Below, piece after piece: positions 1 to 12,007 of a stretch of DNA of 64,000 bases. Under the pieces are notes generated by a model. That model did not search any database and was not told where the DNA came from. It saw only the letters and a program-made list of their open reading frames with translations. A program made the translations under genes and the position numbers. Source of the stretch: Candidatus Altimarinota bacterium (GTDB lineage Bacteria; Patescibacteriota; Gracilibacteria; JBDHUY01); the NCBI GenBank assembly GCA_039809385.1, contig JBDHUY010000004.1, positions 32,001 through 96,000 of the forward strand. Reading direction: 5' to 3'. Within the stretch, counting starts at the first letter, position 1. Each line of letters starts with the position of its first letter.

Positions 1-16
1 TCTCAAGCGTTGTACT

Positions 17-1026
17 GTGCTTGATATAGCAATCGGTGCGCTCAATGCTTACTGTCCCGAAGAAAACTTCTTTTTCCCGTATCTCGATACCAAAAGTATC
101 AACTTTCACGGGATAATTAAATCTCCAATTAACAGTAAAAACAACGGAATCTTGTTTCATCACCTCTGGCTTGAGGAAAAAGACTTATCGAGACCTGGAT
201 TCCTCCCAGTATGTATGAAGATTACATAAAATTACTGCAGTATGTCAGCACGGCTTTTTTACATCAACCGGAAGCCTATTATTCGGAAGCTGTCGAGCTG
301 GTGGCGGGCTTGCATTATTATTTTCAGGCATTCCAAAAAGGTATTTTCTCGGGCAACCGGGAGTAAGATTTTCATCTTTCGCTTAATGAAGGTCTTTTAC
401 AATGTAGCGTACCGGAAACTTCTCTGAATTTTGAACTACCTTTTCGCTCATCCTCGCAAGTGTTTCTGCCCGACTGCGGACTGGCGGAGCAAGAACATAT
501 GCCATTTATGAAAGTTGCCGCTGCCGGAGGGGCCGAGTTTGTTTTGACCAGTCCGAATCGGTTTACCGCGCGTCTTTTGCAAGTACTAGCAGATCTTCAT
601 GCTATACCAAATTTTGCGGTCCATCCTTCCTTCCATCAGGAACAACCGCAACTTCCCTTGACATCCCCAATCGATATTGCGATCTTTTCCAAACTTTACC
701 AGACACACGAAACCGTATGTGCCGATACCGTACAGCGTCTTGCTCGTGGCATGTCTTCTGGGGCACACATCCTCTTGCAAGCTCCCGGCAAGGGTGATAT
801 TTCCGTTAGTGAAACAAGCATCGATACTCTGTTGCGATTCTTTCGTCAGAGCGGATTCGAACTCGTACGTGCACATGAGATGCGCAGACAAAAGAAGCCG
901 TTTTCTCCTCCCGAGCTCTCGCGCCGTTTCTCGATCCCGGTCGAGGAGTATCTGGCCTTTGCCCGCGGCGACTCTTATGCACAACAAGAGAAGAAAATGG
1001 TCGTTGCATTACTCAAGAGGCAGTAA
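17..1026 (+). pseudogene. Fragmented hypothetical gene; the last piece (460-1026) may be a methyltransferase-like fold
   Basis: Three consecutive + ORF pieces. 17-229 and 242-427 share a frame and are separated by an in-frame TAA. No clear family motif. Confidence 0.3.
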
Positions 1027-1152
1027 ACTGTCTTCACTTTTGTATAGGGGAACCTCTTAACTTAAAACGTTTTTTACACTGATTGGAAGAAAAGAATTTG
1101 AAAATCACAACGATTTTCCTCCCTTCTCCTAACTCCGATCTCCCAACTTTTT

Positions 1153-1911
1153 TCACGAATGTTCCACGGACACCCTTGTCAGATCATTCGGATCATATTT
1201 TACATAGACTTCACAACCGGGCTGGTATTTGGGAATCGAACTTTCCATGATAGCCGCCTTGGCGGTTGCCTGAAATTTGGCACTTCCTTCAGGGGTGACT
1301 TCCAGTAATAACTGCACGAACGGATTATTGCCATTCACGTTGATCCCGAGCGGGGTACATTGCAGTATCTTGGCTTTGGCGCTTGTTCCCGTAGCAATGA
1401 TCTGCTGGTTCATCGCATCGATGTCCATCAGCATCTTCTGTAATCCTTCCTGCGAGGCCGTGCCTGCCGCCCCGCTCCCCACCACCGCTACTTTCATCGG
1501 ATCTGCCTGATCTACCATCACGGATACTTCCATGCCGGGTTGGTACATAGATGTTTGCAAGCGTGAAATAATTGATTTGGCTTCGGCCTGGTATTTCGGA
1601 TATCCTTTTCTTCGCACTTCCAGGGTCATCTTTATCTGAGGGTTCTCGTTAACCGTTACCCCTGTATCTTGCAAACTTAGAATCGTCGCCGTAGCCGGTT
1701 CGCCGGATTTCATCAGTCGCGCGGCTTCAAACATCGGTTTCATGATCGGACGGACGACAAAGAAGAATACCGAACCGAAAATACCGATGAAAATAACCGC
1801 GAAAATGGAACCCATCACCGGATCGGCCCAGATACCGGCTGTTAGTCCGGCCAGGCCGCCCAGGATACCGAGTACTACACCGATTTTGGCACCGATGGGA
1901 ATTTTGGTCAT
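1153..1911 (-). CDS. Membrane protein: two N-terminal TM helices and two tandem DUF3592-like beta domains
   Basis: Hydrophobic N-terminus; duplicated motif A.A.IL....G..VN..P.....LEV...YQPG.EV.V..D..D...V. Confidence 0.75.
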   Translation of the reverse strand: MTKIPIGAKIGVVLGILGGLAGLTAGIWADPVMGSIFAVIFIGIFGSVFFFVVRPIMKPMFEAARLMKSGEPATATILSLQDTGVTVNENPQIKMTLEVRRKGYPKYQAEAKSIISRLQTSMYQPGMEVSVMVDQADPMKVAVVGSGAAGTASQEGLQKMLMDIDAMNQQIIATGTSAKAKILQCTPLGINVNGNNPFVQLLLEVTPEGSAKFQATAKAAIMESSIPKYQPGCEVYVKYDPNDLTRVSVEHS

Positions 1912-1966
1912 AGGGGGGAGGGGGAAAGGTATAAAGTATCTGGTATACAGTATTTAGTATGGGGCA
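1912..1966. repeat. Family-A heptamer arm (GGGGAGGGG-(AGTATNN)n-GGGCA); its pyrimidine strand abuts the ATG at 1911
   Basis: aggggggagggggaaaggtataaagtatctggtatacagtatttagtatggggca; closely matches 29041-29094. Confidence 0.8.
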
Positions 1967-2192
1967 TCTTGGCTATGTTGATATAGTGCAATCATTTTGA
2001 CTGCCTGTTGGATGCGTTTGACGCGGGTGTCTGTTTTTTTCGCGTCCTGGATGGCTTTCAGGTATTCCCGCTGGTGGCCCGGCGGTATATTCCCAAATTT
2101 GTTTGTAAGAGCCGCCTGATCAAGCGCTGCGCGGAAGTCTGCAGGTAATACCGGTTTTGCGGATGTTGTCGACGCCCTATCTTTGTTGGCAT
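1954..2192 (-). pseudogene. YdeI/OmpD-associated (bacteriocin-protection) family fragment
   Basis: Hand translation PVLPADFRAALDQAALTNKFGNIPPGHQREYLKAIQDAKKTDTRVKRIQQAVKMI; no in-frame start (the ATG at 2192 is out of frame). Confidence 0.7.
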
Positions 2193-2309
2193 TATGATAT
2201 TTTACAAATCTGCTTCTATCCTAATAAACACTGACAGAAAAGGCGAATGGTTTTTATAAAACGAATTTCTGGTTGGGATTTTGCCGGGCAGGTATTACAA
2301 TGATAATCG

Positions 2310-2510
2310 AATGTTGGGAATGAAACGTACATGCCTACCATCCTGAACCCCCTAGCCGGGGGTAAGGAGGCTACTGTCCATGCTTGCCGGGTGCTGGTCA
2401 GGAAAACAGCATCATTGTCCCTACGCTGAGAACAACGTTACATTTATCCGCCCTACTGTAACGGGCAGCTTCACTTGAGGACAAGCATGACACGTATGGT
2501 TTTGTGTTCT
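2310..2510 (+). ncRNA. Candidate structured RNA upstream of the polA half-gene
   Basis: No ORF. Complementary segments catgcttg/caagcatg, ccccc/ggggg, ggtgctg/cagcatc, cgttaca/tgtaacg. Possible promoter TTGGGA-17-TACAAT at 2273-2301. Strand uncertain. Confidence 0.3.
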
Positions 2511-2641
2511 ATGTTTTCTGACTGCTGACAGCTATTGGCTGACCGCCCGGCAGGTATGGCTCCACTTCTCCTGGGCAGAGATATAGGGCTGCCACTACGG
2601 TTGTCTTCTAATTTCGCACTTTTTACTTTGAATTTTCCTGT

Positions 2642-4123
2642 ATGTCCTACCCCTATTTCGATACGATGATCGCCGAGTATCTGCTTGATTCGGGCAGCCG
2701 GCGTTATGCGCTCTCCGATCTGGCTTTAAAATACCTCGACTACACCATGATCGAGTACGAGGAAGTCACCGGCAAAGGCAAAGACCAAGTGACGTTTGAC
2801 CAGGTTGATGTGGAAAAAGCTACCCAGTACTCGGCCGAAGATGCCGAAATCGCGCTTTCTTTACAGCAAATTTTGATGGAAAAACTCAAAGAAGAGGACC
2901 TGTACGAATTGTTCACGACGATCGAAATGCCGTTGGTACCGGTTCTGGCACGTATGGAGGAGCACGGAATCAAAATAGATGTTCCTTTTTTGGCCGAGCT
3001 TTCCCGACAGTTTCAGGCAGAGATGAACCGCTTGCAAACGGAAATTACGGAACTGGCCGGCGGGCCTTTTAACCTCAATTCTCCCAAACAGTTGCAGGTC
3101 GTTCTGTTTGAAACGCTCAAGTTGCCGATCAAGAAAAAAACTAAAACCGGTCCGTCGACCGATATTACCGTGTTGGAAGAACTGGCCAAAGAACACCCCT
3201 TGCCGGCCAAAATGGTCGAGTACCGCGAATATCAAAAGCTGAAATCGACGTATGTCGACGCATTGCCTCAAATGGTTAATCCCGATACTGGGCGAGTCCA
3301 TACCTCGTATAATCAGACGATTGCCGCGACCGGGCGCCTTTCTTCTACCAATCCGAATTTACAGAATATCCCCATCCGGACCGAACTGGGGAAACAGCTC
3401 AGAAAAGCTTTTATCGCTTCAGAGGGGCATGTGCTTTTGTCGATCGATTATTCCCAGATCGAGCTGCGTATCTTTGCCCACATAGCCGATGAAACCGGAT
3501 TGATCGAAGCTTTTCAGCGGGGCGAAGATATTCATACTTCAACCGCATCGCGTATCTTTAATTTGTCTTTGGCCGAGGTGTCTAAAGAACAGCGCCGGTA
3601 TGCCAAGACGATCAACTTCGGGCTGATGTACGGCATGGGGCCGTTCCGCCTTTCCAACGAGCTGGGTATTACTATGGACGAGGCCAAACAGTTTATCGAA
3701 CAGTATTTTGCTTTTTTCCCCAATATCAAAGCCACGATGGATCAGATCATCGAAGAGACAAAATCAAAGGGTTACACGACAACGCTGTTTGGGCGTAAAC
3801 GCTATATTCCCGAGATTAACAATCTGAACCGCAACCTGCAAGAAGCCGGAAAACGCGAAGCGGTCAACAGCGTAATTCAGGGAACCAATGCCGATGTTAT
3901 CAAAATTGCCATGATTCGGCTTGACGAGCTCTTCAGAGCGCAAAACGTGCGAACGCGGATGCTTCTGCAAATTCACGACGAACTGCTCTTTGAAGTGCCT
4001 GAAAACGAGCTGGATATGATGAAAGAACTGATTCCGCCGGTGATGGAATCGGTAATCGACCTGAAAGCTCCGCTTAAGGTAGAGTTGGGCACGGGAAAAA
4101 ACTGGCTGGAAGCGCACGAGTAG
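2642..4123 (+). CDS. polA: DNA polymerase I, C-terminal part only (second half of the 3'-5' exonuclease plus the polymerase domain)
   Basis: FDTMIAEYLL, ExoIII YSAEDA, motif A DYSQIELR, motif B RRYAKTINFGLMYG, motif C QIHDELL; 5'-3' exonuclease and ExoI/II absent. Confidence 0.93.
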   Translation: MSYPYFDTMIAEYLLDSGSRRYALSDLALKYLDYTMIEYEEVTGKGKDQVTFDQVDVEKATQYSAEDAEIALSLQQILMEKLKEEDLYELFTTIEMPLVPVLARMEEHGIKIDVPFLAELSRQFQAEMNRLQTEITELAGGPFNLNSPKQLQVVLFETLKLPIKKKTKTGPSTDITVLEELAKEHPLPAKMVEYREYQKLKSTYVDALPQMVNPDTGRVHTSYNQTIAATGRLSSTNPNLQNIPIRTELGKQLRKAFIASEGHVLLSIDYSQIELRIFAHIADETGLIEAFQRGEDIHTSTASRIFNLSLAEVSKEQRRYAKTINFGLMYGMGPFRLSNELGITMDEAKQFIEQYFAFFPNIKATMDQIIEETKSKGYTTTLFGRKRYIPEINNLNRNLQEAGKREAVNSVIQGTNADVIKIAMIRLDELFRAQNVRTRMLLQIHDELLFEVPENELDMMKELIPPVMESVIDLKAPLKVELGTGKNWLEAHE

Positions 4124-4330
4124 GGGAATCGAAACTCTTTCCCGTAGGGATCTATAACATCGTAGAAGAGCAGACAGGGATCTCTAAATCTATGAGTCAG
4201 ATGCCCTATACCAAATACCTGAAACTTACTACTTGTTTTATCGTTTCTTGTCTTCGGCTCTTTTTGCCATGTATTTAAAAAAATCAAGCAACGGATTGCT
4301 TGATTCCGGTCGTTTGATTCTTCCGGATTT

Positions 4331-4519
4331 TCAGGCCAAAGTAAGTCGCTTGGCAGCCCGGCGCTGGGTTTGTTTTGTAACACGTAATGGGCTTTGAACT
4401 GCACCCGGATCCTGGTAGCTGCAGCCGCTACAGCTGGCACTTTCCAAAAACTCGCCGCAGTTGGGGCAGGGGGTGTCGGCAAGGTTTGATTCCATCCAGA
4501 TCGACGAATACAGTTTCAT
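4331..4519 (-). CDS. Small putative zinc-ribbon protein
   Basis: CPNC...CSGC; preceded on the minus strand by TTGACA-18-TAAAAT (4583-4554). Confidence 0.5.
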   Translation of the reverse strand: MKLYSSIWMESNLADTPCPNCGEFLESASCSGCSYQDPGAVQSPLRVTKQTQRRAAKRLTLA

Positions 4520-4834
4520 AGTTTTTTATATGTGATTTTTGAATGCTGTTAGTATTTTACGACACATAAAGCATAAATGTCAATTATTTTTTCTCGTCGC
4601 TCCCAAAGAGGAGTACCCGAATTTTTCAACAATGATTGGTAATCTCCCGTGCCTATTCTTTTTTGCCCCAAAAAATGAGAGGTTTTGTTGAGTCGTTGTA
4701 CGAACAGAGGAAGTATGCTATAGTCATCCTCGCTTTTTTAAGGAACCTTACAGTTGCTGTCTCCCTCATGCGTGCTTCCTGTTTCCTAATTCAAGGCACG
4801 AAGACCTAAAAAGGTTTAGGATGAACGTTTCGTT

Positions 4835-4867
4835 CCCATACCTACTACTTTATACTTCATACTTCCC
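4835..4867. repeat. Family-A heptamer arm abutting the gltX ATG
   Basis: cccatacctactactttatacttcatacttccc-ATG. Confidence 0.75.
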
Positions 4868-6322
4868 ATGGTCCGCACCCGTTTTGCGCCCAGTCCCACC
4901 GGTTATCTGCATATCGGAGGTCTTCGTACCGCCCTTTACTCGTATTTATTTGCAAAGAAACACGACGGACAGTTTATCTTACGTGTCGAAGATACCGATC
5001 AGAAACGCTATGTGGAAGGAGCGATCGAGGCTATCACGCGCGGCATGCACTGGGCCGGAGTCCTCTACGACGAGGGCCCCGATAATGGTGGTCCCTATGC
5101 CCCGTACATTCAATCGCAGCGCAAAGATAAATATCTGCCCTATGCGCTTTCGCTCATCGAGAAAGGACATGCCTATTACTGCTTTTGTACTCCCGAACGC
5201 TTGCAACAGATGCGCGAAGAACAGCAACAAAAACATCTTCCTCCCAAATACGACCGTCATTGCCTTGTTTTATCGGAAGAAGAAAAAAAGACCAGACTTC
5301 AGAATGGGGAGGCCCATGTAATCCGCATGAAAGTTCCCGACAATCGTGAACTCGTGCTGGAAGATTTGGTCAAGGGACCGGTTAGTTTCAATACCAAAGA
5401 CGTCGATGATCAAGTTCTTATCAAATCGGACGGCTTGCCCACGTACCAGCTGGCGGTGGTGATCGACGACCATCTCATGGAAATATCGCATGTTATCCGG
5501 GCCGAAGAGTGGCTCCCCAGCAGCCCCAAACAGATGCTCTTGTTCGAATACTTCGGCTGGCAGTTGCCTCATTTCGCTCACGTGTCGGACGTGCTGGCTC
5601 CCGGAGGGGGTGGCAAGAAGCTCAGCAAACGCGACGGCGCTGTTTCTCTGGACGAATTTGCCGCCCAAGGCTATTTGCCGGACGCGACCATGAATTATAT
5701 AGCTTTCGTCGGCTGGAATCCGGGTACGACCCAGGAATTCTTCAGCATGCCGGAATTGATCGAAGCTTTCTCGCTCGAACGTTGTCAGAAAGCCGGGGCG
5801 ATTTTTGACTATAAGCGGTTGAACTGGATGAATGGTCAGTACATTCGTAAAAAAAACGTTCAGGAATTGAGCGCACTGCTTAAACCGTTTCTTCAGGATC
5901 AGTCGTGGTATCGTGAGGACGATGCTTTCTTGGAAAAAGCGGCTGTCGAGGTACAGGCCCGGATGGAGACTCTCGTGCAGGGACGCGAAATGCTCGAGTC
6001 CTTCTATACCCGGGTTGACTATGCAAAAGATCTGATTCTGAACGAAAAGATGAAAGTTTCCGAGCCCATAGGACAGACTAGCCTGAAGCTGATTCTGGAA
6101 AAACTCACGCTTCAGGAAATCTGGGAAAAAGAATCGTTGCAACAGACCCTGCAGCAGATCGTCGCACAAAACGGTCTGACGAACGGACAAGTATTCTGGC
6201 CGCTGCGGGCGGTACTTTCCGGTAAACCCGCTTCTCCGGGTGCTTTTGAAATGGCGTATGTGCTGGGAAAGACCGAAACGTTGGCGCGCATTGAGCAGGG
6301 ACTCTCGAAAATGGGGAAATGA
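4868..6322 (+). CDS. gltX: Glutamate--tRNA ligase
   Basis: RTRFAPSPTGYLHIGG, LRVEDTD, KLSKR. Confidence 0.98.
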   Translation: MVRTRFAPSPTGYLHIGGLRTALYSYLFAKKHDGQFILRVEDTDQKRYVEGAIEAITRGMHWAGVLYDEGPDNGGPYAPYIQSQRKDKYLPYALSLIEKGHAYYCFCTPERLQQMREEQQQKHLPPKYDRHCLVLSEEEKKTRLQNGEAHVIRMKVPDNRELVLEDLVKGPVSFNTKDVDDQVLIKSDGLPTYQLAVVIDDHLMEISHVIRAEEWLPSSPKQMLLFEYFGWQLPHFAHVSDVLAPGGGGKKLSKRDGAVSLDEFAAQGYLPDATMNYIAFVGWNPGTTQEFFSMPELIEAFSLERCQKAGAIFDYKRLNWMNGQYIRKKNVQELSALLKPFLQDQSWYREDDAFLEKAAVEVQARMETLVQGREMLESFYTRVDYAKDLILNEKMKVSEPIGQTSLKLILEKLTLQEIWEKESLQQTLQQIVAQNGLTNGQVFWPLRAVLSGKPASPGAFEMAYVLGKTETLARIEQGLSKMGK

Positions 6323-6378
6323 GTTCAAAGTTCAAAGTTCAAAGTTCAAAGTTCAAAGTTCAAAGTTCAAAGTTCAAA
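6323..6378 (+). repeat. Perfect tandem repeat (GTTCAAA)x8 directly after the gltX stop
   Basis: Counted directly; the following tcaatactccttagtg recurs at 41161-41176. Confidence 0.95.
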
Positions 6379-6396
6379 TCAATACTCCTTAGTGAT

Positions 6397-6451
6397 TGCC
6401 CCCATACCAAATACCAAATACCAAATACATACTACTATTGTTCCCTCCCCT
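6397..6451. repeat. Family-A heptamer arm (ATACCAA repeats)
   Basis: tgcccccataccaaataccaaataccaaatacatactactattgttccctcccct is the reverse complement of the 1912/29041 consensus. Confidence 0.75.
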
Positions 6452-6521
6452 ACTTTTCTCTTGAAGATTTTTAGAAAAAATTTATAGTGGGATTGTCACT
6501 CTTGTTCCTTTTTCCATTACA

Positions 6522-6845
6522 ATGAAATATCATCAACTGAAGCATATTCTGAACGCTATCAAGCATAATACTCGCTGTCCGCAGTGTACCAAAATGTACC
6601 CCCTGGACGAGGTCGATTTGATCGATTTGTTTGAAAACGAGGGCGTGATCGATTTCTTTTGCCCTACTTGTAAATTGGGAATGTCTCTGAATATCCAGCT
6701 GGAAGAATTTCATCCCGGCAATGCCGAGGAAGTTGTGTCGCGTTTTACCAAATCCGAGATCAGCGACGGCGAAGTACAGAATTTCTCGCTGTTGCTCAAG
6801 AATCATCGCGGCGGTTTGGAGGATTTGTTTAAGCCTGTAGAATAA
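6522..6845 (+). CDS. Small zinc-ribbon hypothetical protein of a CPR-type family
   Basis: CPQC and CPTC pairs; C-terminal IS.GEV..FS..LK.H.G.LEDLF. Confidence 0.75.
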   Translation: MKYHQLKHILNAIKHNTRCPQCTKMYPLDEVDLIDLFENEGVIDFFCPTCKLGMSLNIQLEEFHPGNAEEVVSRFTKSEISDGEVQNFSLLLKNHRGGLEDLFKPVE

Positions 6846-6867
6846 ATTCCGATTTTTTTCGTCTTCT

Positions 6868-7155
6868 ATGATCGTTCCGGATCGGACTTTTGTGGCTCGT
6901 ATGCTTTCCGTGGTTGTGATTGGTCTGATCGTGGTTTCCCTCTCGGGCTGCAGTTTCTTTGGCGATGCCGGGAAAGAGGCCCAAAAACAAGCCGAGTCCG
7001 CCCAAAAGACGTTTAACGAGACGGTGGATAAGGCGAATAGGACGATCAACGATGCTAAGAATAAAGTTGAGAATGTACAAAAAGCTGCCGGCGACCTGCA
7101 AAAGAGTGTGAACGATCTGGGGAATTGGGGGCAGGGAAACGGCAATGCCAAGTAG
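6868..7155 (+). CDS. Small coiled-coil lipoprotein
   Basis: Hydrophobic leader with lipobox LSGC. Confidence 0.7.
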   Translation: MIVPDRTFVARMLSVVVIGLIVVSLSGCSFFGDAGKEAQKQAESAQKTFNETVDKANRTINDAKNKVENVQKAAGDLQKSVNDLGNWGQGNGNAK

Positions 7156-7302
7156 AATCTTCAGTTGTTAAAAAAATGATAAACTGTTTTTCTAAAACAG
7201 CTTTTTTCCTGTAATCTGTCAATCCCTGATTGTCCTGCTTTTTGGTTTTGTCAATAATATTTTGAAGCTTGATAGAGAGCAACTGCCCGGAAGGGTTGGA
7301 CA

Positions 7303-9450
7303 GTGGGAGGAGGCGGTGCTAAATTCAAAAAGCATTTTAATACCAAAAATCGTATGGTAACACTCGGACCCGAGTTACCGGGGATAGAAAATGGCGAAAC
7401 AGATACAAATAAACTCCGATTAACAATTGAGGGAATAATGCAGAGCATCATGGTAGACTTTCTTGATGCTATTTCCAGAGAGGGGAAGAATCATCTTTTT
7501 GAGCATACAATCTCTTTTGACCGAGAACATGTCGGTAGAAAGGACATGACTACCCTAAAGATACCTGCACTTGAGGATGAAGGGGCAGGAAATCCATCAG
7601 ATATCCAATCAGTCCCGGTATTAAATTCGCTCGATCAAGCTGTAAAGCTCAGAAACGCTAATAATCATGCGGCAAGTCTTGAAAATATTGCCCGGATGGT
7701 TGCTCAACAAGAAGATATACACCACATTTTTCTGGCACTTCATTACTTCATACCCGAACAAATCGATCAATTGGGAGACACTGCGCTCGATCTGCTAAAT
7801 AGGGTACTTCAATCAGTGAGAAAATCTATTTCTTCTGTCAAAGATCCTATAGAACGGAGTTCCATGACGAACCGAATCGATGTTTTTTATAACGAGCTCA
7901 ATGCTATTAACGTGCGCGGCGATTTCACTATTACCGATTTAATGAAGCAGGAAATTTATTTCAACGATTATCCCGATACGCTCGGTATTATGCTCTATAA
8001 AAGAGAGCTTTTTGCTCCTGCATTGCAATACCTTCGTAAGGCTATTGATTTGTTAGAAAATGCTTATTCAAGAGAATCGGATTTTTATAAAAAATTCTCC
8101 ATTGTATTACGACTGAGCCATATCTTGAACGTTCTTGGAGCTGCAGAGATGCGCAGTGGAAAGAGCATTTCAAAGATTCAACCGATTATTCGTGCTTCGC
8201 AATCAGTACATACCTCCTTGAATAATCCTGTGGAAGCCGCACGACGTTCCGTCAATCTGGATTTTATGAATCTCCACGATCACCCTACCGATGTTTATCA
8301 TACCACCTTGACTAGTGGTAACCTTGCCGTGAACTTCTCGCAAATCGCCACTTCCATGGAGGTTTCGAAGAATATTTTCGAAGTGAATAAAAGTCACAAA
8401 AGTCTAATACGAGTTACCCTGAACCTTGGTATTCTTTATTGCTATGAAGGAAAATCTCTCCAGGGTGCTAATTTAACGAATATGAGTATTCAAAAATATG
8501 AAAAAGCTCTTGTGTATTTGCAGAATGCAAGTAATCTTTGTCAACGCCATAACATTATGAATGATTATGTTGAAATACTGAATTATATGTCTATGGTTCA
8601 GGCTATTATGGGATCCCGCCAATTTGCTTTGCTCAATAATGAAGCGGCACTGCGTATTTTGGACAATGCTGTGATCAAGAATAAAAATGAACGGAAGGTT
8701 CAAAAGATCATTGCCAACTTGGTCTCAATTTTTATTAATTTTGGCAACGATATAAGAAATCCCGAGGTGGTAAAACAAATGAATGTTAAACTGATCGAGT
8801 TGTTTAGAGAAATATTTTCAATAGATTTATATACTTTTCAACATAGTGATAACACGGGACTTTTGCTGAAATTCTCAGGAGAACCATTCATTCAGGATTT
8901 CAAGTCTACTTATCCCGAGCTTGCGGGAATTTCACCGGATGATTTATACATAGTCGGGCTTTTTCATGATTTAGGAAAAATGGGCATACTTCCTAGTATC
9001 TTGTATAAACCTGATAAACTTACAAAAGAAGAGCAAGAAGAGATGCAAGAGCATCCTATGATGGGCGTTCGGTATTTGCAAAGGTTGTTCTTTTTCATGT
9101 CTAATTTTCCAATTGAACTTATCAAGCGCGGAATTTCTGAGCACCATCGCTGGTATAAAGGTGGTAACGGAAAAGGTTATCCAGCCTCATCCGATCTGCT
9201 TTATCCCGAAACTCATGTTATCTCGCAGCTTCTTACAATTTGCGATTTCTTCGATGCATTGCGGCAGAGAAGGCCATATAGAGCTACCAGTTATTACCCC
9301 GAAGATATATTTCGTTCCTATGTAGAGGATAGAGAGAGTACTTCACAAGAGAAGAAATTTAATCCAGAATTAACAAGCTACTTTATGGAATTATTCAAAG
9401 AACCCGAAAAACGAGATTACATTGATAGTCTCTATAATAGATCAAACTGA
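7303..9450 (+). CDS. TPR-like helical protein with C-terminal HD-GYP phosphodiesterase domain
   Basis: HDLGK, HP..G, HH, GKGYP, D.FDAL...RPY; AT-rich; start uncertain (alternative 7354). Confidence 0.85.
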   Translation: MGGGGAKFKKHFNTKNRMVTLGPELPGIENGETDTNKLRLTIEGIMQSIMVDFLDAISREGKNHLFEHTISFDREHVGRKDMTTLKIPALEDEGAGNPSDIQSVPVLNSLDQAVKLRNANNHAASLENIARMVAQQEDIHHIFLALHYFIPEQIDQLGDTALDLLNRVLQSVRKSISSVKDPIERSSMTNRIDVFYNELNAINVRGDFTITDLMKQEIYFNDYPDTLGIMLYKRELFAPALQYLRKAIDLLENAYSRESDFYKKFSIVLRLSHILNVLGAAEMRSGKSISKIQPIIRASQSVHTSLNNPVEAARRSVNLDFMNLHDHPTDVYHTTLTSGNLAVNFSQIATSMEVSKNIFEVNKSHKSLIRVTLNLGILYCYEGKSLQGANLTNMSIQKYEKALVYLQNASNLCQRHNIMNDYVEILNYMSMVQAIMGSRQFALLNNEAALRILDNAVIKNKNERKVQKIIANLVSIFINFGNDIRNPEVVKQMNVKLIELFREIFSIDLYTFQHSDNTGLLLKFSGEPFIQDFKSTYPELAGISPDDLYIVGLFHDLGKMGILPSILYKPDKLTKEEQEEMQEHPMMGVRYLQRLFFFMSNFPIELIKRGISEHHRWYKGGNGKGYPASSDLLYPETHVISQLLTICDFFDALRQRRPYRATSYYPEDIFRSYVEDRESTSQEKKFNPELTSYFMELFKEPEKRDYIDSLYNRSN

Positions 9451-9489
9451 TACATTTAATGTGCTTGTTTTGGAAAATGGGAATGTATA

Positions 9490-9517
9490 TTGACTAAACA
9501 GGTAAGTATTCTATAAT
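9490..9517 (+). promoter_or_regulatory. Sigma70-like promoter with no clear downstream CDS
   Basis: TTGACT-16-TATAAT, followed by the inverted repeat aatatggttga/tcaaccatatt. Confidence 0.55.
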
Positions 9518-9615
9518 AAATATGGTTGAAATAATAGATCAACCATATTATTTCCTTTAACAATCAGTCCATGGACGTATAAGTTCAGGTTGGTTGTCGG
9601 AGGACAAAAACCAAA

Positions 9616-9653
9616 ACAAAAGGCACACTCCCTCGGGAATCGTGCTTTTTTGT
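9616..9653. terminator. Bidirectional intrinsic terminator
   Basis: acaaaaggcac...gtgcttttttgt, just downstream of ftsK. Confidence 0.65.
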
Positions 9654-9675
9654 TATGCGGTCTTAAACGAACTTT

Positions 9676-11916
9676 TTATTCCTCATCGCTGCTACCGCTA
9701 CCGGTTTCATGATCGATAAAGATCTCGCGGGGCTTGCTCCCCATGACCGGCCCTACCACACCTTGTTCTTCCAGCATATCCATGATACGGGCCGCCCGGG
9801 CATAGCCCAGCTTCAACCGACGCTGAAACAGCGAGGCCGAAGCCTTGCCGGTAGCGCGGATCACCTGAATCGCCTGATCGACCAGCTGGTCGTCGGACAT
9901 ATCTTCTCCGCCTGCCACCGCATTGCCGGGTATATAGTCGGTAATCGGAACCTTTGCTACCTCGATTACATCCGGCAGGTAGTCCGGTTCGACGGTCATG
10001 CGGATATGGGTTGTCACTTTTTCAATCTCGGCCGGACTCACATAGACCCCCTGGACGCGCATGGGTTTGGTAACTGTGGTTGAAATATAGAGCATATCTC
10101 CTTTGCCGATTAAATCTTCGGCCCCGATGCTGTCCAGAATCGTACGGCTGTCCACCGCCGATACCACTGCGAAAGCGACGCGGGACGGGATATTGGCTTT
10201 GATCAGACCGGTAATAACGTCCACGCTGGGCCGCTGGGTGGCCACGACCAGATGAATACCAACAGCGCGGGCCATCTGGGCGATGCGGCAGATCAATGTT
10301 TCCACTTCCTTTTTCATGCTGGTCATCATCAGGTCGGCCAGTTCGTCGATCACAAAGACCAGATACGGCATTTTCTGTTCGGGCTCGACTTTCTGGTTGT
10401 ATTCGTCGCGGTTGCGCACCCCGGCGCCCTGTAATTCCTTGTAACGGCGTCCCATCTCCGCCACGGTCCAGCGCAGTGCGTTGATGGCTTTGTCGGGATC
10501 GGTGATCACCGGCGTTAGCAGATAGGGGAGTGCGTTATACCCCGAGAGTTCGACGCGTTTGGGATCGACCAGGATCAGTTTCAGCTCAGCCGGCGAGTTC
10601 TGGTAAAACAGGCTTAGGAGCAAACTGTTGATGGCTACCGACTTTCCCGACCCTGTGGCTCCGGCGATCAGCATATGCGGCATAAAGTTCAAGGCATCGA
10701 TGATCGGCTTGCCGGCTACGTCCCGGCCCAGCGGAAAGCGCAGCGTCGATTTGACATCGTAGAACTCTTTGCTTTCCAGAATCTCTTTGACATGCACGAC
10801 CATGCGTTTATCGTTCGGTATCTCGATCCCGACCAGCGACTTGCCGGGGATAGGCGCTTCCATCCGGATCGACTTGGCCGCCAGCGCTAGCGCCAAATCG
10901 TCCTTTAATCCCGTTATTTTACTGAGTTTGATCCCTTCGTCGGGCTCGAAGGCATATTGCATCACCGTCGGACCGACGTTGACGTCTTTCATCGTCACCG
11001 GAATATTGAACTGCGACAATTTATCTTTTATCTTTTCGGCATTTGCTTTGAGCAAAGCTTCGTCCAGTATCACTTCGGAGGAACCTTTTTCCAGCAGATC
11101 GAGCGGCGGAAATTCCCAATTGGTCAGGTTTTTGGCTTTGATCTCGTTCTGGATGAAATCGGTCTTGGCGTTTTTGTCGCCGCCGGGCGCGTGTATGACC
11201 ATGCCATCCGACTTTTTGGCAGCCGACTCGGCTTTTTTGATCTCGTGGACGCCCTTGATCTTGAATTCTTCTTCGTGTTTTTCGCTCATCTCTTTGCGGC
11301 TGCGCCGCGCGGGTGGAGCTGTTTCTTCTTCTTCGCGCTCTTTTCTGGCAAATACCTGTTTGATCGTTTCGACGATCGATTTCTGAAATAAGAGCAGAAT
11401 CGATATCAGAAATACTCCGAACAAGACGATCCTGGCGCCCATATCGCCCAGAGCCGGTTTGAGCAACAGTGAAACGAAAAAACCGACATAGCCGGCCAGA
11501 CTATGAATGATGATCTCCCGGTCTGCGATCAGTTCGATATCGCCGTACAGGCCGATGTAGCCCAGGAACGAAAGAAAGAGCAGGGATATGGCGAAGTATT
11601 TGGTGAAATTGAGAGTAAACTCTTTTTCCAGCAGCATGGTGACGACCAGGATGCCCATAAGTGCCAGTAGCAGGTAGATGCCCCATTGTCCGATAACGTT
11701 CAGCAGGAACGAATGCCAGGCATTGCCGACAAATCCGACGGCGCCGCTGCCGCTGATAATAGTGAGAATGATAAAGACGCCCATCCCGATCAGACTGACC
11801 TCCCGGGAGATGCTGCTTTTCATTTCAAGTTGCGGGCGGTTGTGGCGCAGGAAGCGTTCGAATTTTTGGACCGTTTTGGCGGCGGAGGCGTTGCCGCGCG
11901 TTCTTTTTCGGCGCAT
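9676..11916 (-). CDS. ftsK: DNA translocase FtsK/SpoIIIE
   Basis: N-terminal TM helices, PHMLIAGATGSGKS, IDELADLM, ATQRPSVDVITG, gamma domain SLFQRRLKLGYARAAR. Confidence 0.97.
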   Translation of the reverse strand: MRRKRTRGNASAAKTVQKFERFLRHNRPQLEMKSSISREVSLIGMGVFIILTIISGSGAVGFVGNAWHSFLLNVIGQWGIYLLLALMGILVVTMLLEKEFTLNFTKYFAISLLFLSFLGYIGLYGDIELIADREIIIHSLAGYVGFFVSLLLKPALGDMGARIVLFGVFLISILLLFQKSIVETIKQVFARKEREEEETAPPARRSRKEMSEKHEEEFKIKGVHEIKKAESAAKKSDGMVIHAPGGDKNAKTDFIQNEIKAKNLTNWEFPPLDLLEKGSSEVILDEALLKANAEKIKDKLSQFNIPVTMKDVNVGPTVMQYAFEPDEGIKLSKITGLKDDLALALAAKSIRMEAPIPGKSLVGIEIPNDKRMVVHVKEILESKEFYDVKSTLRFPLGRDVAGKPIIDALNFMPHMLIAGATGSGKSVAINSLLLSLFYQNSPAELKLILVDPKRVELSGYNALPYLLTPVITDPDKAINALRWTVAEMGRRYKELQGAGVRNRDEYNQKVEPEQKMPYLVFVIDELADLMMTSMKKEVETLICRIAQMARAVGIHLVVATQRPSVDVITGLIKANIPSRVAFAVVSAVDSRTILDSIGAEDLIGKGDMLYISTTVTKPMRVQGVYVSPAEIEKVTTHIRMTVEPDYLPDVIEVAKVPITDYIPGNAVAGGEDMSDDQLVDQAIQVIRATGKASASLFQRRLKLGYARAARIMDMLEEQGVVGPVMGSKPREIFIDHETGSGSSDEE

Positions 11917-12007
11917 AGTAATGAGTATTTTTCCCAGAGGATTCGGAAATATTTCTCTTAGAGTATACATTTTTTGTTCACTCGTGCAATAGGAAGTGGG
12001 GCAGCCA

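Follow-up and report, generated by a model that had tools for sequence, protein, structure and literature searches.

Bacterial DNA polymerase I (Pol I) is the textbook single-chain enzyme with three activities, and the flap nuclease FEN1 of eukaryotes and archaea carries a PCNA-interacting peptide at or near its C-terminus. Here we describe a polA gene from Candidatus Altimarinota bacterium (Patescibacteriota, Gracilibacteria) that is divided between two loci, with the cut inside the proofreading domain. The C-terminal half lies in a stretch of 64,000 nucleotides (nt) from assembly GCA_039809385.1 (contig JBDHUY010000004.1, positions 32,001 to 96,000 of the forward strand; G000:C4:32001-96000 in our numbering), and this whole stretch is referred to below as the window. 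The genome, G000, amounts to 1.87 Mb in 26 contigs and is 95% complete and 2% contaminated.

The sole printed precedent that we found for a split family A polymerase comes from T7-like cyanophages of the S-SBP1 group (Nucleic Acids Res 2023, PMC10201439). According to that paper, the phage polymerase has undergone fission into two adjacent genes, the cut lying where the exonuclease domain meets the polymerase domain; its authors infer that the products associate, note that the new termini are solvent-exposed and term this the first split seen in PolAs. As in the phage case, a family A polymerase has here been divided by fission between two genes; the differences from the published description are that a cellular Pol I is cut inside its exonuclease domain (between positions 94 and 95 of the 173 in the Pfam profile PF01612), the genes are often far apart and here on different contigs, and a tail resembling a clamp-binding motif stands at the cut.

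The second system for comparison is the Pol I of Mycobacterium tuberculosis, which docks on the sliding clamp DnaN through an internal QLSLLDD peptide, as determined by cryo-EM, crystallography and binding (bioRxiv 10.64898/2026.09.19.751633). That preprint reports the Pol I clamp motif only in Mycobacteriales and quotes a consensus for beta-clamp binding. Both there and here a Q-x-x-L-L/F peptide occupies a flexible stretch in the region of the exonuclease domain, but the mycobacterial motif, as described, is internal, whereas here the peptide is a free C-terminus made by the split and its binding to DnaN is predicted from sequence. In an alignment to PDB entry 6vde, a 908-amino-acid (aa) Pol I containing QQQLSLLDDSD, the mycobacterial motif falls about 35 residues C-terminal to the cut, in the next loop, and the two placements are therefore independent.

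When the C-half was used to search for related loci, the matches were all ordinary polA genes from other phyla (42-50% identity). In a literature search that left subscription journals mostly outside, we found neither a description of a cellular Pol I divided within its proofreading domain nor one of clamp-motif tails for these proteins. To judge from the sequences compared, what appears to be new is the clamp-binding-like motif at the C-terminus of 26 of the 33 N-halves and of all 20 exonuclease-only relatives.

The two halves of polA

The initial annotation, made from the letters of the window, had described polA as a C-terminal half cut within the 3'-5' exonuclease domain, encoded by an intact 493-aa open reading frame (ORF) that starts five residues before FDTM and holds all polymerase motifs, and had proposed that the enzyme is split by nature, with its N-half somewhere else in the genome. 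ORF analysis, Pfam and motif reading agree with this description of the C-half, the parts of which are as follows.

2642 to 4123, plus strand: polA C-half gene, comprising the last third of the 3'-5' exonuclease domain and the whole polymerase domain (ORF, Pfam, NF004397 positions 399-889 of 889, TIGR00593 positions 404-890)
2651 to 2887, plus strand: C-terminal piece of the 3'-5' exonuclease domain, residues 4-82 (PF01612)
2828 to 2842, plus strand: ExoIII motif YSAED, residues 63-67 (motif reading; G005 and five f22 genomes have YSxED in their C-halves)
2990 to 4111, plus strand: family A polymerase domain (PF00476, positions 4-381 of 381)
3446 to 3469, plus strand: polymerase motif A
3593 to 3634, plus strand: polymerase motif B
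3968 to 3982, plus strand: polymerase motif C

The gene begins with ATG and its product with MSYPYFDTM. The polymerase domain is complete, residues 117-490 matching positions 4-381 of 381 in PF00476 (DNA_pol_A, E 4.7e-162) with motifs A (DYSQIELR), B and C (QIHDE) in place. By contrast, the exonuclease domain is represented only by its end, residues 4-82 matching no more than positions 101-172 of the 173 in PF01612 (E 1.7e-10), an interval that becomes 95-172 in a search of the whole genome. The closest solved structures to the pair are Taq, Klenow, the Bacillus fragment and the 908-aa Pol I of 6vde.

The missing N-terminal part was located on another contig by searching the genome for it. The N-half gene, G000:C9:2112-3395 (L001:994-2277), codes for 427 aa with matches to PF02739, PF01367 and positions 1-94 of PF01612; ExoI (DTETT) occupies residues 330-334 and ExoII (HNIKYD) residues 392-397, so that the frame ends shortly after ExoII. 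It provides the only match to the 5'-3' exonuclease family PF01367 in the genome, just as the window gene is the sole match to PF00476 in a search of all 26 contigs of this 95% complete assembly, with no separate full-length polA beside it. Together the two proteins tile the full-length Pol I models without gap or overlap: positions 3-397 and 399-889 of the 889 in NF004397, and 1-401 and 404-890 in TIGR00593. On the domain profile PF01612 they cover 1-94 and 95-172. As in ordinary bacterial Pol I (NF004397/TIGR00593), the pair covers the 5'-3' exonuclease, the 3'-5' exonuclease with ExoI to ExoIII, and polymerase motifs A to C; unlike it, these activities are spread over two unlinked genes on contigs C9 and C4 rather than one polypeptide, with the cut in the proofreading domain and a C-terminal extension of the N-half that ends in QMNLL. 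On the sequence, all ExoI, ExoII and ExoIII residues expected of a proofreading enzyme are present across the pair.

Taken singly, the C-half scores 732 bits against NF004397, the NCBIfam equivalog for Pol I with a cut-off of 720, and the N-half scores 411 bits, below the cut-off. In annotation such halves are easily mistaken for a truncated polA or a pseudogene, and counts of Pol I from genome surveys of this group may be wrong.

A third, weak match to PF01612 on contig C13 belongs to an 804-aa protein with RNase_T and Helicase_C_2 domains, a DinG-like exonuclease-helicase and not a polymerase.

Distribution of the split

The uninterrupted 913-aa PolA of a relative, G015, was used to search 401 genomes of the class; the counts that follow refer to the matches listed, 313 weaker rows being outside them. 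About 66 rows are C-halves that start at query position 413 at least and come from families f1, f4, f5, f22, f29 and f30, many of them in frames interrupted only by TGA, with the N-halves listed separately. Together with the genome sizes, these TGA-interrupted frames suggest that the class belongs to the ultra-small-genome bacteria (candidate phyla radiation) and is the recoded, Gracilibacteria-type group. An uninterrupted polA occurs only in G015 and G006. Most other genomes of the class give one match, to the 5'-3' exonuclease part only. A search of 41 genomes with PF01612 places an equal cut in other families, and in every case read the C-half starts 1-8 residues before the FDT or YDT motif. 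These sequence comparisons indicate that the cut is old and shared across families, and the split state has been stable across several of them, including genomes with a changed genetic code.

The distance between the halves varies widely. In two genomes of family f4, G036 and G004, the match is full-length, the halves being contiguous and in frame with one TAA between them and the ATG 1-5 codons further on. The halves are adjacent in G048 and also in G005, where both lie on one contig with a 211-nt spacer that holds a long AT-rich palindrome. They are 40-290 kb apart on one contig in G034, G188, G116, G242 and G132, the single-contig genome G034 having them 79 kb apart.

Long imperfect palindromes of AT-rich, AAATCC-type repeats follow the N-half gene in two families, at L001:2321-2468 in G000 and at L008:1939-2061 between the halves of G005. 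In G036 (L040:2170-2260) and G004 (L041:2180-2270) the TAA comes directly after a Q-x-S-[IL]-F motif, a minimal fission that perhaps operates by termination and reinitiation.

Outside the class the picture is different. In a phylum sample of 401 genomes, all of the 149 matches listed from other than the class itself are open frames of at least 601 aa, mostly 900-1000 aa, and all 12 polA genes fetched from other classes are intact (898-944 aa), with a short, unbroken loop from ExoII to FDTM that sets them apart from the split pair. One of the 149 rows comes from G547, which is flagged unpublished, and the conclusion would stand without it. Because the matches outside the class are long open frames and the 12 fetched genes are intact, the split is, on this sequence evidence, a trait of this class within the phylum.

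Among the matches listed, most sampled genomes of the class have no match to the Pol I polymerase and retain the 5'-3' exonuclease only; the same pattern is seen in families f7, f8, f9, f16, f18, f24, f26, f27 and f28 in the phylum survey.

Probable reassembly of the halves

We favour a reading in which fission of polA has produced two polypeptides that re-associate non-covalently, and from the sequence evidence we give this a probability of roughly 0.8, with the clamp-binding tail as a less certain part of it. Fission would have taken place in the surface loop between ExoII and ExoIII of the 3'-5' exonuclease domain, leaving two polypeptides that would be expressed separately: an N-half of 427 aa with the 5'-3' flap exonuclease, ExoI, ExoII, a basic linker of about 20 aa and the C-terminal QMNLL, and a C-half of 493 aa with ExoIII and the polymerase. 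The two proteins would bind each other non-covalently and so complete the split exonuclease fold, thereby restoring a Pol I with proofreading, and neither RNA nor protein splicing would be involved. The free C-terminus of the N-half may in addition be a motif that binds the beta sliding clamp, holding the flap nuclease, and with it the polymerase half, on DnaN at the ends of Okazaki fragments. A cellular Pol I is here cut inside a folded catalytic domain, so that its proofreading site would need to be assembled from two gene products. Nature thus offers a case in which to study how protein fragments complement one another and how the genes produced by a fission become dispersed.

Evidence for association comes from the catalytic residues. 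G000, G005 and five f22 genomes retain ExoI and ExoII on the N-half as well as ExoIII on the C-half, and in G001, G048, G036, G004, G132 and G218 all three are lost or degenerate; the state of the Exo motifs is concordant between the N- and C-half in 13 of 13 pairs. This joint keeping or loss across both genes argues for one reassembled enzyme. Where the proofreading site has been maintained on two genes at 30-50% overall identity, the fold is, by the same argument, probably completed by association of both proteins. The lengths of the N-halves point in the same direction: they measure 380-449 aa (n=33), but where a polymerase match is lacking (20 genomes) the 5'-3' exonuclease protein has approximately 298-328 aa, so that in the sequences sampled the exonuclease N-piece is retained only where a C-half exists. 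The initial annotation had offered two routes of re-joining, as a heterodimer or at the RNA level. The heterodimer route fits the comparative evidence and is supported by the co-variation of the Exo motifs, while the RNA route has fared badly, with no excess pairing and no intron, as discussed below.

The most serious competitor is that the halves are independent, the N-half being a flap exonuclease with a vestigial stub and the C-half a Klenow-like polymerase devoid of proofreading, with no heterodimer formed. Such independence would agree with the state of most of the class, which has an exonuclease of about 310 aa and no Pol I polymerase among the matches listed, and with the several split lineages that lack ExoI, ExoII and ExoIII. 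It does not readily account for the survival of three motifs on two diverging genes, for their concerted loss elsewhere or for the persistence of the N-piece only in company with a C-half, and we regard it as unlikely. An AlphaFold2 model of the intact G015 protein (residues 291-913) has a mean predicted local distance difference test score (pLDDT) of 78.9, with 83-97 in the blocks after the cut; 136 residues before the cut fall below 50, with only two alignment rows there, and the model is uninformative about the loop.

A clamp-binding-like tail at the cut

The N-half ORFs extend 3-35 residues beyond the conserved sequence, and while this extension is variable in length and sequence, its C-terminal peptide is conserved. 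The last five residues are QMNLL in G000 and QASLL in G001; the tails of f22 include QMSLL(D), QMSFL, QVSLF and QMTLEL, those of f4 QMSIF, QLSLF(S) and QPSLF, and those of f30 QGSLF and QMGLF. A clamp-binding-like end, Qxx[LMIF][FLI] or a six-residue form, closes 26 of the 33 N-halves, 19 in the five-residue and 7 in the six-residue form. The end of the G000 N-half also agrees with the consensus quoted in the mycobacterial preprint, Q-x-x-[L/M]-[F/L] or a six-residue form in a flexible region or at a terminus, and the same genome encodes a normal three-domain DnaN. On the strength of these sequence features the tail is a putative clamp tether, and the odds of its binding DnaN appear to us somewhat better than even.

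Related peptides occur on proteins that are not split in this way. All 20 exonuclease-only proteins from other families of the class (L070-L089, approximately 298-328 aa) have a QxSLF-type peptide at their C-terminus, to all appearance a tag by which a bacterial flap nuclease could bind the clamp. Of the 12 intact PolA proteins of other classes (L137-L148), 6 have Q[ST]xLF or QTDMF about 15 residues after the 5'-3' exonuclease domain, at residues ~295-310; this linker site coincides exactly with the end position of the exonuclease-only proteins, and the N-halves examined are without it there. There is an analogy with FEN1, in that a flap nuclease would carry a short clamp-docking peptide, as the ~310-aa exonuclease-only proteins appear to do; the likeness would be one of function only, the bacterial 5'-3' exonuclease and DnaN being different proteins from FEN1 and PCNA.

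The conserved Q-x-x-L-F/L tail, seen at the cut and on all exonuclease-only relatives examined, is relevant to the question of whether Pol I and the flap nucleases of bacteria act on the sliding clamp. If the tails do bind DnaN, clamp-tethered processing of Okazaki fragments would be a recurrent invention.

The DDE transposase (PF01609) encoded at G000:C5:21-1259 ends in QLALFSS, which also resembles a clamp-binding motif.

Weighing the proposal

Several points count against the proposal of a re-associating, clamp-tethered pair. Expression and binding of the halves are deduced from sequence, and no RNA run is listed among the runs that hold the stretch. In lineages with a dead exonuclease site, residue co-variation is silent on present binding. 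The history of the cut is also less clear than its position: a tree of the polymerase domain (22 rows, quick and careful versions) has an unresolved backbone, places an outgroup row that contains three stops at the end of a very long branch, and does not separate one fission from several. As to the tail, the motif is absent from 7 of the 33 N-halves (five f29 genomes, L064, and G005, which ends in EQMKMC) and is therefore not needed for the split itself. In G000 a looser pattern closes 8 of 1243 ORFs, where shuffles lead one to expect 4.7, and it also matches unrelated places such as a QVVLF-type peptide inside the polymerase thumb. Given these chance matches, the case for the clamp rests on positional conservation among related, non-independent sequences.

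A broader view can be put forward tentatively, although we would not ourselves wager on it, in which the fission was not neutral and gave a two-subunit Pol I. The motif that the cut exposes would fasten the flap nuclease to the clamp, as a bacterial counterpart of FEN1 on PCNA, and the polymerase and proofreading subunit would be detachable, docking by completing the split exonuclease fold. The split state would be an intermediate, from which most of the class would have gone on to lose the Pol I polymerase while keeping a clamp-tagged flap nuclease of ~310 aa. Tethering of Pol I or the flap nuclease to the clamp would then be general in the phylum, by way of the linker motif in intact proteins (6 of 12), the cut in split ones and the C-terminus in those reduced to the exonuclease.

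Splicing and assembly as alternative explanations

Re-joining at the RNA level would require that the two transcripts pair through complementary arms or a split group I/II intron and be trans-spliced into one polA mRNA. The layout of the genes has features that invite this idea, as the N-half ORF continues for ~25 codons after the conserved sequence has ended and the C-half is preceded by a long stretch of non-coding DNA, and the initial annotation had offered as one possibility a complementary arm to pair with the pyrimidine-rich sequence ahead of the C-half. The N-half is not followed by such an arm. The duplex energy of the 33-nt stretch with the 3' flank of the N-half gives z = -1.0, with 17 of 100 shuffles as good. 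For 150-nt flanks (N-half 3', C-half 5') z is -0.2 and 40 of 100 shuffles do equally well, and among random pieces of the genome 90 of 100 pair no less well. No Rfam family matches at E<=1 in positions 1-12000 of the window or around the N-half (L001), the flanks thus yielding no covariance-model match to a group I/II intron, and the loci of five relatives are without an intron family, two weak sRNA-like matches far under threshold being all that appeared. In G036 and G004 there is no room for an intron, because one in-frame TAA alone separates the halves. The N-half tails, moreover, end in a conserved peptide motif and are hence translated sequence, and the supposed arm is the usual kind of leader in this genome. 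We consider RNA-level re-joining very improbable.

That the split is an artefact, caused by misassembly, chimeric binning or a mobile element breaking one polA in the assembly, might be suspected of a 26-contig, metagenome-type genome with the halves on different contigs. Both genes nevertheless have clean starts and stops and lie well inside their contigs, which measure 96 kb and 135 kb. Position 2642 is bridged, with 0-1 differences, by Logan contigs of three runs in two studies (X1 2299-2993, X2 2508-2781, X5 2551-2876), one of which runs may be the source sample of the assembly. The misassembly at ~2640 that would have undone the initial annotation is thereby excluded, as are the two other outcomes named there as refuting it, a separate full-length polA and a genome without any N-half. 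An equal cut is found, moreover, in single-contig genomes such as G034 and G022. An artefact can hardly be credited on this evidence.

Further upstream, an X2 contig (1009-2379) covers the region before the C-half and runs through position ~2340, where one X1 contig, matching after this point, diverges before it (255 unlike letters); the divergence may reflect a strain variant or the edge of a repeat.

Least probable of all is protein trans-splicing by a split intein: split inteins do occur in other replication genes, but the N-half has ~23 residues after the conserved sequence and the C-half only 5 before FDTM, where an N-intein of ~100 aa and a C-intein of ~35 aa would have to fit, and with Pfam finding no intein domain in either protein this route is excluded.

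Leader, spacer and neighbouring sequences

The sequence upstream of the C-half was described in the initial annotation as non-coding DNA and opposite-strand genes, with no polA sequence and with a pyrimidine-rich arm abutting the ATG. Each of these elements is present, but the arm reads differently.

1912 to 2641, no strand: 730-nt non-coding spacer between the divergent minus-strand gene and the C-half, with no polA remnant (ORF, Rfam and tRNA scans)
2609 to 2641, plus strand: 33-nt T/C-rich leader adjoining the ATG, an ordinary leader that has no Shine-Dalgarno (SD) site rather than a pairing arm

Within the spacer the longest ORF has 71 aa (13 ORFs of 25-71 aa), Rfam finds no match at E<=1 there or elsewhere in positions 1-12000, and the tRNA scan of 1912-2641 found none. 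The neighbouring gene, at 1153-1911 on the minus strand, belongs to DUF3592 in Pfam.

The arm is read as an ordinary leader because leaders poor in SD sites, rich in pyrimidines and poor in G are usual in this genome. An SD-like 4-mer precedes 23 of 694 long ORFs, compared with 11.8% of background windows, and over 606 ORFs positions -15 to -1 average 64% pyrimidine and 11% G, where G makes up 23% of the genome. The same positions in the C-half leader have 73% pyrimidine and 13% G, and this leader contains TACTTT, a hexamer that is 7.3-fold enriched upstream of genes. The leaders of the N-half gene, dnaN and gltX are alike. A Bacteroidota-like TAnnTTTG promoter is not enriched in the leaders (14 of 605, or 2.3%, against 1.8% in the background), a scan of 1800-4400 for sigma-70 promoters and terminators came close to shuffle expectation, and the RNA fold of 2330-2641 is not significant (z = -1.47).

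Genome-wide, ACTTTA, TATACT and TACTTT are enriched 7- to 11-fold ahead of starts, and T/C-rich, G-poor leaders can be seen, for example, at 2597-2641 and 4823-4867 of the window. The first ~55 nt of the spacer (1912-1967) recur at 10 other places in the genome with 76-93% identity; they lie just upstream of the minus-strand DUF3592 gene and may be a shared promoter or leader element.

On the other side of the C-half, a 744-nt gap (4124-4867) separates it from gltX. A minus-strand ORF of 62 aa within this gap (4331-4519) has two CxxC pairs and might encode a small zinc-ribbon protein. After gltX, at 6319-6392, an ORF carries SSKFKVQ three times in tandem, pointing to a short DNA repeat.

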